Assembly (NCBI GenBank): GCA_014728035.1
Contig: WJMJ01000071.1
Location: 64,001-128,000, forward strand
Source: Promethearchaeota archaeon
Lineage (GTDB): Archaea > Asgardarchaeota > Thorarchaeia > Thorarchaeales > Thorarchaeaceae
Direction of reading: 5' to 3'
Length of the DNA: 64,000 nucleotides
The notes under the pieces were generated by a model. The model did not search any database, was not told the DNA's origin, and worked only from the letters and a program-made list of their open reading frames with translations. The first letter of the stretch is position 1, and the number at the start of each line of letters is the position of its first letter. The position numbers and the translations under genes are program-made. Shown here one piece after another: positions 4,217 to 26,573 of this stretch.

Positions 4217-5041
4217 TTATTGAACGCTTCCCTTATCTTTTGGAACTTTTAGACCGCCTGTGCCTGCAGCTAAAGCTACGGATGCCGCTGCTGAAGCACC
4301 AACTTCAGGTATGTTGGTTGGTAACATGATTATGAGATTTGCATTCTTGCTAATTTCCTGCATGATGTTCCATGTTCTGAGCACAAAACCAACTTGTGAC
4401 TCCTCATAGATTTTTGCAGCCTTCAGCATCGTTTCTGATGCTTCGAGTTCAGCTGTAGCTAGAGTGATTCTAGCTCGGCGTTCTCGTTCTGCTTGTGCTT
4501 CTCGACTCATTGCATCTTGTAATTGAGTTGGGATAACAACATCACGAATCTCTACTGCTGTGACTTTGACGCCCCAGTGTTCAGTCTTTTCATCAATAAG
4601 TTCCTGCAAATGTTGGGCGATTTTATCTCTCTCTGATAGCACTTCATCCAGAGTAACTTTTCCTGTTGTTTCACGAAGTGTTGTCTGGGCTGCTAGTTCT
4701 ACTGCAATTGTATACCTTTCCACACTTAATATCGCTTTTTCAACATTGATTACTCTGAAATACATGACCGCATCTACGACAACAGGAACGTTATCCTTTG
4801 TCAGAGAACGTTCAGTTTTGAATGCATAAGTCTGTAATCTCAATGATACTTTCATTGCAACCTTGTCAAGCATTGGAGTAATCCAGATTATTCCAGGACC
4901 TCGTATGTGCTTAAACTTACCAAGCCGTAGCACAGCTACTCTTTCCCATTCTTTCAGAACTCTGATTCCACTCGCGATAAAGACCAAAATAAGAAACGCG
5001 ACAATAACGATTGCGAAGATTATTAATTCATTAAACTGCAA
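4217..5041 (-). CDS. SPFH/band-7 (stomatin-like) protein
   Basis: EWERVAVLRLG, LTKDNVPVVVDAV, AQTTLR, WGVKVTAVEIRDV, AQAERERRA. Probable TTG start at 5041 with CAGGAG RBS. Confidence 0.93.
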   Translation of the reverse strand: MQFNELIIFAIVIVAFLILVFIASGIRVLKEWERVAVLRLGKFKHIRGPGIIWITPMLDKVAMKVSLRLQTYAFKTERSLTKDNVPVVVDAVMYFRVINVEKAILSVERYTIAVELAAQTTLRETTGKVTLDEVLSERDKIAQHLQELIDEKTEHWGVKVTAVEIRDVVIPTQLQDAMSREAQAERERRARITLATAELEASETMLKAAKIYEESQVGFVLRTWNIMQEISKNANLIIMLPTNIPEVGASAAASVALAAGTGGLKVPKDKGSVQ

Positions 5042-24083: not shown

Positions 24084-24770
24084 TTGCTGAAAGCAGTACT
24101 CTTTGACATGGATGGAACAATAACTGAATTGACATTGCCCTTGGAGGCAATGCGTAGTGACACAAAGAAATTCTTTCTAGAACGAGGTCTACCTTCTAGT
24201 CTTCTGACTATAGATGATGGAATTTCTAGTACTAAATACAAAGCTAAAACCTACTTCTCAGATAATGGTATTTCGGAAGAAGATTGGAAGCAGATGGAAC
24301 TTGATCTTGATGTGGTTCTGAATTCCCATGAGGGTGATGCTGCTAAAAACACCTTGATTATTCCAGGTACTTTAGAATCAGTACAGCAGATTAGAACCCT
24401 TGGCTTGAAGACTGCAGTTCTAACTAACAATGGTCGTCATGCGGTGGATATAATATTACAAACTCATCCTTTCCATGAATATTTTGACATTATTCAGACC
24501 AGAAATGAATCCCCTAACCCCAAACCATATCCTGACGGTCTCCTAAAATTAGTGCGTTATTTGAACCTTAAGGTTGATGAGGTAGTATATGTTGGGGATG
24601 CTCGTATAGATGCGGCTGCTGCACAAGCTGCAGGTATCGAGTTTTGGGGTGTTTCTACTGGTGAAACTTCAAAACAAGTTTTGGTAAGTGTTGGTTCGGA
24701 TTTGGTATTTTCTTCTCTGAATGAGGTTGCTAAAGAAGTTAAGAATCGGATAGACAATGAACTTGACTAG
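24084..24770 (+). CDS. HAD-superfamily phosphatase (phosphoglycolate-phosphatase-like)
   Basis: FDMDGT, VLTNN, KPYPD, YVGDARID. Confidence 0.92.
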   Translation: MLKAVLFDMDGTITELTLPLEAMRSDTKKFFLERGLPSSLLTIDDGISSTKYKAKTYFSDNGISEEDWKQMELDLDVVLNSHEGDAAKNTLIIPGTLESVQQIRTLGLKTAVLTNNGRHAVDIILQTHPFHEYFDIIQTRNESPNPKPYPDGLLKLVRYLNLKVDEVVYVGDARIDAAAAQAAGIEFWGVSTGETSKQVLVSVGSDLVFSSLNEVAKEVKNRIDNELD

Positions 24771-25446: not shown

Positions 25447-25473
25447 AGGTGTAGAATAACTAAGTAAAAGACA

Positions 25474-25720
25474 GAATGGGGGGGAGACCTCCCTCATTCA
25501 AAATAATAATTTTTGCATCATAAACAAATTGAAGGTGCGAGGTGCGCCAGGAAAAATAGTACGCTTGGTTGCTTGAGGAGGTTAATCGCGACTTTTTCAG
25601 TGCGATTGGAGGAGAGGATGTGTGCACCTTTTGTGCAATCAGGATTTTTCAGGAGGGAGCATCACTATTGATGACATTCGTCAAATGTGATGTTTGGCGC
25701 TCCTCGACACGCATTCAATT
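25474..25720. ncRNA. Candidate multibranch structured RNA with three GGAGG/CCTCC junction motifs plus a terminal hairpin
   Basis: Outer stem 25527-25549/25695-25720, three internal hairpins and hairpin 25474-25499. Minus-strand TTTTAAAT box at 25748-25741. Confidence 0.55.
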
Positions 25721-25857
25721 GTATGTACCACAATAATACATTTAAAACTTGTGATAATCTCTATTAATTATTCTATTTATTGCGATTTTCACAATATTTG
25801 GCGGGGATTAGGTTCGTCCAAGAATTGATTATATAGTTTTGAACATATTATATTATT

Positions 25858-25950
25858 AGGAACGACCTGAGGACTATTCTTGTTATGATCATTCCGTAAC
25901 ATTCTCTCTCCTCCTCCAGCGTTAATTTCTCAGGTCGCTCTTCTTCTTCT
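25858..25950 (+). ncRNA. Candidate small RNA with exposed CUCUCUCCUCCUCC
   Basis: TTATATAG box at about 25829; stem CGACCTGAG/CTCAGGTCG; inner hairpin TGTTATG/CGTAACA; pyrimidine tail. Confidence 0.55.
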
Positions 25951-26009
25951 ATTAATATCATCAACTTATCATCACAATAATAAAACACCCATGTTGACAT
26001 TACATACAC

Positions 26010-26040
26010 TTATATTATAATATATTATATTATAATATAA
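26010..26040. promoter_or_regulatory. Tandem AT palindrome (TATATTATAATATA x2): TATA box and/or operator
   Basis: TTATATTATAATATATTATATTATAATATAA directly upstream of the GC-clamped element at 26042. Confidence 0.5.
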
Positions 26041-26041
26041 C

Positions 26042-26138
26042 GGGGGCCACAATCATCCGCTACACACACCCTCTCTCTCAGATTTGACGTCCAATTCCAC
26101 AAGCGCTGCGGATTCGATTCCTCCTATTTTTGGCCCCC
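26042..26138 (+). ncRNA. Candidate small RNA with CU-rich loop and GATTCCTCCT bulge
   Basis: GGGGGCCA/TGGCCCCC clamp and ATCCGC/GCGGAT inner stem. Confidence 0.55.
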
Positions 26139-26201
26139 AGACCTTCTGCTATCCAGCAAGTTTTAAAGGACTTCTACATTGCACTCGAATGGAGAAGAAC
26201 A

Positions 26202-26573
26202 ATGTCATCAATTGCGAAAAAAGCAGTCGACAGTACGGTGAAACGGATTTTACTTCATATGGCAGAGATAATTGCATCAATTGGTATATTGATCTTGATA
26301 TGTTTACCACTTCTCTTTGCTATTCCTCAATGGTTCCAGCTTGTATTGTTCTATTCGCCATCCCTTGATTTGCTTGTAAATCCTGTTGCATGGTTAAATG
26401 CCAGTGGTGCCATTATGGCCATTGTTGCACTTGCTTTTGTAGGGCTAATATTCGTGTATCCAATAATCACGAAGATAGCTTCGTCAGGTCTTGAAACTGA
26501 TGATGATTACATCGACGAGGACGAAGATGAAGAATACTTTGATGAAGAAATTGAATCAGAAGAGACTGAGTAA
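26202..26573 (+). CDS. Small two-TM membrane protein with acidic tail
   Basis: ATG 26202 with GGAG RBS; two hydrophobic helices; D/E-rich C-terminus. Confidence 0.7.
   Translation: MSSIAKKAVDSTVKRILLHMAEIIASIGILILICLPLLFAIPQWFQLVLFYSPSLDLLVNPVAWLNASGAIMAIVALAFVGLIFVYPIITKIASSGLETDDDYIDEDEDEEYFDEEIESEETE

Follow-up and report, generated by a model that had tools for sequence, protein, structure and literature searches.

The locus raises the question of what is encoded in a gap of 755 bases (25447-26201) that holds no credible coding sequence, as judged by an ORF check of the window (the whole 64,000-nt stretch of DNA that was analysed, G000:C37:64001-128000; the G000 assembly amounts to 4.3 Mb). 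The gap is bounded by the stop codon of a 135-aa ORF (25446) and by the ATG at 26202 of a gene encoding a 123-aa membrane protein; an earlier note on this DNA had put the stretch without CDS at about 750 bp, in agreement with our count. That note read the gap as an Asgard small-RNA locus for translational control, made of three structured elements. Asgard archaea are the closest prokaryotic relatives of eukaryotes. We know of no regulatory small RNA characterised in any Asgard archaeon, and our literature search found neither such an RNA nor a paper on the RNAs described here or on Thorarchaeota small RNAs.

Our analysis indicates that the three elements (E1, E2 and E3) are very probably real, conserved and so far uncatalogued small-RNA genes. 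The features discussed below are the following.

24084-24770: gene for a HAD-type hydrolase, upstream neighbour of the gap
25531-25718, minus strand (most likely): E1 small RNA, ~190 nt, based on family conservation and closing-helix covariation
25582-25607, minus strand: 26-nt hairpin inserted in the E1 loop, genus-specific (G000 and G001 only)
25741-25747, minus strand: E1 TATA box TTTAAAA, 22-23 nt before the outer end of the E1 helix
25749-25763: palindrome box A, TTGTGATAATCTCTA, right half degenerate in this genus
25780-25794: palindrome box B, TTGCGATTTTCACAA, ~35 nt before the E2 TATA box; TTGCGAnnnTCGCAA conserved in all genera
25828-25835, plus strand: E2 TATA box ATTATATA, ~23 nt before the E2 stem
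25859-25950, plus strand: E2 small RNA, ~90 nt, based on matches of model R2 and covariation
26009-26016, plus strand: E3 TATA box CTTATATT, part of the conserved ACACTTATAT and 25 nt ahead of the E3 stem
26042-26138, plus strand: E3 small RNA, ~97 nt, based on 13 genomes with clade-specific complementary stems
26161-26168, plus strand: TATA box TTTTAAAG, belonging to the downstream membrane-protein gene and distinct from those of the RNAs; relatives have a conserved AGCAAnnTTTAAAGG immediately in front of this gene

Genomic context of the elements

Thirty loci of relatives were extracted and oriented for gene-order reading. The order is conserved across Thorarchaeota genera: HAD hydrolase, unknown protein, E1, E2, E3, small membrane protein and Mrp (the Mrp/NUBPL ATPase gene is convergent and lies beyond the small membrane-protein gene). 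E1, E2 and E3 are all syntenic in more than 20 genomes from about 12 genera, and the spacer between E1 and the membrane-protein gene measures ~400-900 nt in the relatives. In BLAST searches against relatives, a sister species matches the whole 771-nt gap at 83% identity, and many other genera of the family have short stretches of element 1 in conserved form. The 135-aa neighbour of the gap, described as an unknown beta-rich protein, has no Pfam match, and the flanking proteins F1 and F2 have no Pfam domain and show no sign of DNA or RNA binding.

A different arrangement is found in genus g6 (loci L035, L042, L043 and L048). Here E1 and E2 are separated by an inserted gene on the minus strand (cluster F7), the locus lacks both the membrane-protein gene and E3, and E2 is displaced, lying ~0.8-1.1 kb away on the same contig; E1 and E2 persist.

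Short ORFs in the gap were rejected as genes, as their frame is lost in relatives and the indels are not multiples of three. The same applies to a small-ORF reading of E1, in which a plus-strand AUG follows GGAGG but the frame is unconserved and the indels again are not multiples of three. No tRNA or tmRNA was found by ARAGORN. A G/C hairpin (GGGGGGAGACCTCCCTC followed by AATAATAATTTTT) is located at 25474-25500, in the interval from the upstream gene's stop codon to the E1 3' end, where it may terminate transcription of the convergent gene, of E1 or of both.

Conservation and structure of E1, E2 and E3

E1 was detected by BLAST in at least 37 of the 86 family genomes, with homologues ranging in length from 92 nt (genera g6 and g8) to 190 nt. 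Its closing helix of ~20 bp is formed between 25692-25718 and 25531-25553. The MAFFT alignment of full-length homologues for RNAalifold was broken by variable hairpins; the E1 covariance model was seeded on 12 short forms, and 23 full-length members were recovered (this short-form model truncates long forms, including the E1 of G000). Both sides have changed in 13 of the 18 pairs of the closing helix in the 23-member alignment, its cells are paired in 93.5% of cases (versus 43-62% with the 3' partner slid), and the observed covariation score was reached by none of 500 column shuffles. The conserved unpaired segments of E1 are CUCCCUCCUGAAA, ACAUCCUCUCCUCC and CCUCCUCAAGCAACCAAGCG, and the interior as a whole is almost invariant (CUCCCUCCUGAAA, then CAUCCUCUCCUCCUCAAGCAACCAWGCGAACC). 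The genus-specific hairpin at 25582-25607 interrupts the E1 core CCUCUCCUCCUCAAGC, which is contiguous elsewhere, and co-varies between the two species that have it (CGCGAC/GTGCGA versus CGTAC/GTACG). Of the 26 exact matches that the E1 core has in public records, 15 belong to Thorarchaeota, Promethearchaeota or uncultured archaeal MAGs. The remaining 11 are single matches in bacteria, a number close to chance expectation for an 18-letter pattern.

E2 was found by model R2 as a single copy in each of 54 genomes (out of 86 family genomes; 11 of the 16 genera), including genera without a detected E1; 125 genomes representing 26 other Asgard families gave no copy. Its closing helix (25863-25873 with 25927-25937) encloses a family-invariant core, CUCUCCUCCU (the G000 form is CAUUCUCUCUCCUCCUCCAGCGUU), which is the same in 31 out of 31 aligned members. 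The closing stems around this core are wholly different between genera yet complementary: ACCGGGGCC/GGCCCCGGT, CAAGAGTCG/TGACTCTTG and GACTCGAGGG/CCCTCGAGTC in different genera, and CGACCTGAGGA/TTCTCAGGTCG in G000. The mean stem score is 24.7 for arms from the same genome versus 15.4 for arms combined across genera, both sides have changed in nine of the 10 pairs (31 aligned members), and 84% of the helix cells are paired versus 29-65% when slid. For E1 and E2 alike, RNAalifold predicts the closing helix only and leaves the conserved interior unpaired, and the loop cores of the two are similar (CAUCCUCUCCUCCUCAAGC in E1, CAUUCUCUCUCCUCCUUCCAGC in E2). By these counts the closing helices of both co-vary between genera, covariation at syntenic loci having been a check proposed in the earlier note.

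The E3 stem of G000 is formed by GGGGGCCA and UGGCCCCC, with the conserved CCGCUACACACACCCUCUCUCUCAGAUUUGAC enclosed; the loop of this genus also carries GAUUCCUCCUAUUUUU. The pattern CCGCUAC...CUCUCUC inside a clade-specific stem was found in 13 genomes, and the stems of the clades are all complementary (CGGGGACC/GGTCCCCG, GGGGCTCAC/GTGGGCCCC and GGGGGCCA/TGGCCCCC). These E3 statistics come from a per-genome stem table, not from a covariance model, MAFFT having scattered the 5' arm. Looser E3-like elements were seen in further genera, by eye only. A T-arm-like GCGGAUUCGAUUCC in E3 was considered as a sign of a tRNA and rejected, being genus-specific and lacking a matching stem. All three RNAs are specific to the family Thorarchaeaceae.

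The description of the gap as three closed folds therefore holds by comparison of genomes (covariation for E1 and E2, complementary clade stems for E3), whereas single-sequence folding is significant for element 1 only: against shuffles, z is -4.6 for the minus strand of E1 and -5.1 for its plus strand, and the folds of E2 (z = -0.4) and E3 (z = -1.8) alone are not above chance, so that on G000 alone only element 1 would stand. The CU-rich motifs quoted in the earlier note are all present, and all are unpaired in the minimum-free-energy folds.

Promoters, operators and ends

TATA boxes are found 21-26 nt before the base of the closing helix in E1, E2 and E3 (the earlier note gave about 25-30 nt). 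In relatives a TTATTATATAC-type box lies ~22 nt before E2, and the E3 promoter A(C/T)ACTTATAT is conserved at 23-26 nt in 13 genomes. From these boxes we infer that E1, E2 and E3 are each transcribed from their own TATA promoter. Of the pyrimidine tracts proposed at the ends of the elements, those after E2 and E3 are present, and are weak as terminator signals. The TATA box of the small membrane-protein gene is only 34 nt before its ATG at 26202, so the mRNA of this gene should be leaderless or nearly so, without a Shine-Dalgarno (SD) site.

Two, sometimes three, 15-bp palindromes (TTGCGAnnnTCGCAA) lie between the E1 and E2 TATA boxes in every genus examined (L023-L052). Box A abuts the E1 TATA box on its BRE side, and TTGYGA-N3-5-TCRCAA is found at its position in all genera examined; a second palindrome lies ~25-35 nt before the E2 TATA box across genera. 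These conserved palindromes between the divergent E1 and E2 promoters are new, and their conservation there implies a dedicated transcription factor. The pattern TTGYGAnnnTCRCAA has two matches in the whole 4.3-Mb genome, i.e. only one besides box B, so the putative dimeric regulator looks dedicated to this locus, and the palindromes look like its operator. A search for a regulon by means of the palindrome was uninformative, with its single other genomic site. As E1 and E2 share a promoter region with two operators, one dimeric transcription factor probably switches both together; such a regulator of the locus is suggested by the palindromes themselves.

Possible link with translation and candidate targets

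The loops of E1, E2 and E3 share CCUCCU with the 3' end of 16S rRNA (GGAUCACCUCCU), the resemblance from which the earlier note had started. The 16S gene and its 3' end were searched for and are absent from the G000 assembly, and the 3' end was therefore taken from a sister genome of the same genus. Among G000 ORFs of at least 120 aa, SD-like pentamers peak 11-13 nt before the candidate starts, which indicates real use of GGAGG-type sites by a minority of genes and agrees with the GGAGG use noticed before. Neither the single nor the consensus folds pair the CCUCC(U) loops, which are complementary to SD/start regions, as expected for masking of ribosome binding sites (RBSs).

Strong predicted loop duplexes are 2-5 times commoner at 4407 start regions than in coding-interior windows; for example, E2 has predicted duplexes of -20 kcal/mol or lower at 2.7% of start regions versus 0.5% of coding-interior windows. 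This enrichment is similar to that of the bare 16S tail and no better. Only E1b, E2 and E3b score above all eight composition-matched shuffles, and marginally so; E1a, E1c and E3a do not. The 86 genomes contain perfect complements of the invariant 13-nt E2 core about as often as those of the reversed control pattern (~25 outside E2 versus ~20), so the invariance of the core is not accounted for by any one conserved target with full complementarity, which leaves either many partial targets, as for the seeds of multi-target bacterial small RNAs, or binding of a protein. In the absence of a conserved perfect target, RBS masking is something that we infer. Of the Asgard small-RNA locus for translational control, the three small-RNA genes are thus upheld, while the control of translation has behind it predicted pairing at about the level of the bare 16S tail and no conserved target.

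There are individual candidate sites. One for E2 is a 16-nt perfect match to AGGAGGAGAGAGAAUG on contig C18, which includes the start codon. The candidate leaders include those of a 77-aa gene on C18 and of the gene at C37:17080. The E3 loop has a match of 13+8 nt in the leader of G000:C151:83813 (GAGAGAGAGUGUGUGUAGCGG; 83760-83812, L109/L112), a gene encoding a 367-aa protein with a weak winged-helix signal. This site is kept in the sister species (G001:C5:37810-37836), where the proteins are 65% identical and the flanks have diverged. The orthologues in other genera have purine-rich leaders without the specific GUAGCGG match, so the E3 pairing may hold only in this genus. The winged-helix-signal gene could be a target of E3, and conceivably it encodes the regulator of the locus.

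A possible mechanism

Being single-copy, family-wide and strongly constrained, E1, E2 and E3 must do something important. In our overall reading, to which we give an even chance, they are three trans-acting small RNAs with their own promoters, whose loops mask SD/start regions and repress translation. The RNAs would be made independently (E1 from the minus strand, E2 and E3 from the plus strand, each from its own TATA promoter), and in each the long closing helix would keep a pyrimidine-rich loop of 40-70 nt single-stranded. The loops, with CCUCC(U) in the same letters as the 3' end of 16S rRNA, would pair with purine-rich SD/start-codon regions of a set of mRNAs and keep the 30S subunit off them, so that their translation would be repressed. 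E1 and E2 would be divergent look-alikes with a common promoter region and two palindromic operators. The pairing with mRNAs itself, i.e. RBS masking as the likeliest mechanism, we hold more tentatively, at somewhat below even chances.

A bolder version, in which the locus is a transcription-factor-switched module of three anti-SD mimic RNAs acting as a global translational switch, seems unlikely to us. If it were true, the induced RNAs would compete with the 16S 3' end for SD sites genome-wide, and translation would shift from the ~15-25% of mRNAs that are strongly SD-led towards leaderless or SD-less ones. An Asgard archaeon would then have a global switch, not gene-by-gene control by small RNAs.

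Alternative explanations

E1 is probably on the minus strand, as the earlier note had it. In ~20 genomes the outer end of its helix is 21-24 nt away from a TATA-like box, and no conserved TATA box is seen on the plus-strand upstream side of E1 in the ~20 genomes compared. In the minus-strand reading G:U outnumbers A:C by 26 cells to 11 (the alignment counted was fitted to the minus-strand model). E1 keeps its TATA box and the palindromes in genus g6 too, where the next gene is encoded on the minus strand and no plus-strand feature comes after them. In three genomes the E1 model also gives weak matches to E2, on the opposite DNA strand, which fits divergent look-alike genes. The likeness of the E1 and E2 loop cores favours the minus strand as well. 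Transcription from the plus strand, which would give a purine-rich RNA (with GGAGG three times) acting as a decoy of the 16S anti-SD or as a sponge of the E2/E3 C/U loops, is distinctly improbable, although several observations speak for it: this RNA contains GAGGAGGAGAGGAUG, which is complementary to 10 nt or more of the E2 core; it folds more stably (-69.9 versus -50.2 kcal/mol; z of -5.1 versus -4.6); a T5-6 tract directly follows its 3' end in some genomes; G049 has three A:C mismatches on the minus strand that would be G:U on the plus strand; and plus-strand G:U pairs are found in G049, G013, G022 and G007 (some by eye). However, the extra stability is mostly due to purine runs that form G:U pairs with U runs, and the T-tract is the A/T-rich region expected between a minus-strand TATA box and its start. 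The elements do lie between the same two genes in most genera, as they would if the gap were one long structured 5' leader or regulatory region of the membrane-protein gene, or the 3' UTR of the upstream gene. We regard this as very improbable. Every element is preceded, at the spacing of a promoter, by a TATA box of its own, E1 and E2 point away from each other, and a further conserved TATA box belongs to the membrane-protein gene (so the three RNAs are not its leader). E1 and E2 also persist in g6, where that gene and E3 are missing from the locus and E2 is displaced by the inserted gene.

The main rival of RBS masking is protein sequestration, in which the invariant C/U-rich loops would bind a conserved pyrimidine-tract or anti-SD-binding protein, and the RNAs would titrate or deliver it instead of pairing with mRNAs. 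Candidates would be a KH-domain factor, e.g. the archaeal Dim2/Pno1 homologue, which binds the 3' end of 16S rRNA, or an Sm-like protein. Invariance of E1 and E2 over 13-25 nt while the stems drift exceeds what SD pairing needs, perfectly complementary targets are not in excess, and the conserved E1 segment CAAGCAACCAWGCGAACC is not SD-like and has no complement of at least 12 nt among the exact matches listed for G000. The display of repeated similar motifs in open loops also resembles the design of sponges of the CsrB/RsmZ type. Yet the neighbourhood offers no candidate protein (it encodes the HAD hydrolase, the unknown beta-rich protein, the membrane protein and Mrp), and the seed regions of multi-target bacterial small RNAs are similarly invariant. 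We consider sequestration rather unlikely.

Known RNA families and comparable systems

No match to Rfam 15 at the gathering threshold was found in the whole window, and the best sub-threshold matches in the gap (E of 0.6-7) are far below the cut-offs. A known RNA class that would explain the motifs, which the earlier note had allowed for, is thus not found in Rfam 15. The elements do not have the features of archaeal guide RNAs, which for the C/D-box kind are C/D and C'/D' boxes in canonical order and for the H/ACA kind an ACA box with a pseudouridylation pocket and a K-turn. A single weak sR2-like (C/D-box-like) match is located on the minus strand at 25928-25979, overlapping the 3' end of E2 (18 bits versus a cut-off of 42); GUGAUGA and a terminal CUGA are present, but there is no D' box, and it is therefore probably a chance match.

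Judged by analogy of the proposed action, the closest functional analogues are the RBS-masking small RNAs of Methanosarcina mazei; sRNA41 and sRNA154 are archaeal intergenic RNAs of this kind, in addition to sRNA162. In sRNA162 a single-stranded linker between two stem-loops masks the RBS of MM2441, and its targets have been experimentally verified (PMC3510493). Like it, E1, E2 and E3 are archaeal and intergenic, have their own (predicted) promoters and present a single-stranded region proposed to pair with RBS/start sites and to repress. Unlike sRNA162, with which they share no sequence or structural homology, they have one long closing helix with a large open loop, they are known from sequence alone, and they are three different clustered RNAs with shared operators in an Asgard phylum.

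C-rich motifs facing SD sequences are also found in bacteria. In RsaE/RoxS and other C-rich-loop small RNAs of Firmicutes, unpaired C-rich motifs pair with the G-rich SD sequences of several mRNAs, and unpaired C-rich motifs with proposed SD pairing are what E1, E2 and E3 have in common with them. RsaE/RoxS are bacterial and not homologous; their CCCC/UCCC motifs sit in short hairpin loops, and they have a Rho-independent terminator. The cuckoo RNAs of Alphaproteobacteria (CcsR/RSs0680 and SmelC397) consist of two to four adjacent short hairpins with CCUCCUCCC in each loop (PMC4615179). The likeness lies in clustered siblings with variable stems and a displayed anti-SD-like motif (E1 and E2 carry CCUCCUC or CCUCCUUCC), and the difference in one closing helix with an interior of 40-70 nt, the motif not being in tandem hairpin loops. 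E1, E2 and E3 further differ in being archaeal and in forming three non-identical families, one of them divergently transcribed, with a putatively operator-controlled shared divergent promoter; they were found in Thorarchaeota MAGs only, not in the alphaproteobacterial distribution of cuckoo RNAs. The cuckoo/AbcR-type RNAs, named as analogues in the earlier note, do not include E1, E2 and E3, which have no Rfam match and a different architecture.

Implications and further observations

The loops of E1, E2 and E3 point at translation initiation, and the conserved operators offer a handle on the signal that controls these RNAs. As well-delimited sequences, the three are suited to metatranscriptome mapping and to in vitro 30S toeprinting, and as new Rfam families they would improve the annotation of Thorarchaeota genomes.

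The 16S genes of relatives appear to be interrupted at L172 (G052), L173 (G020) and L174 (G001). The 16S match in G001 spans 2411 nt for a model of 1478 positions, and G052 and G020 have an insertion that displaces the stretch immediately preceding the anti-SD tail. It is likely that the rRNA of these relatives contains introns or insertions.
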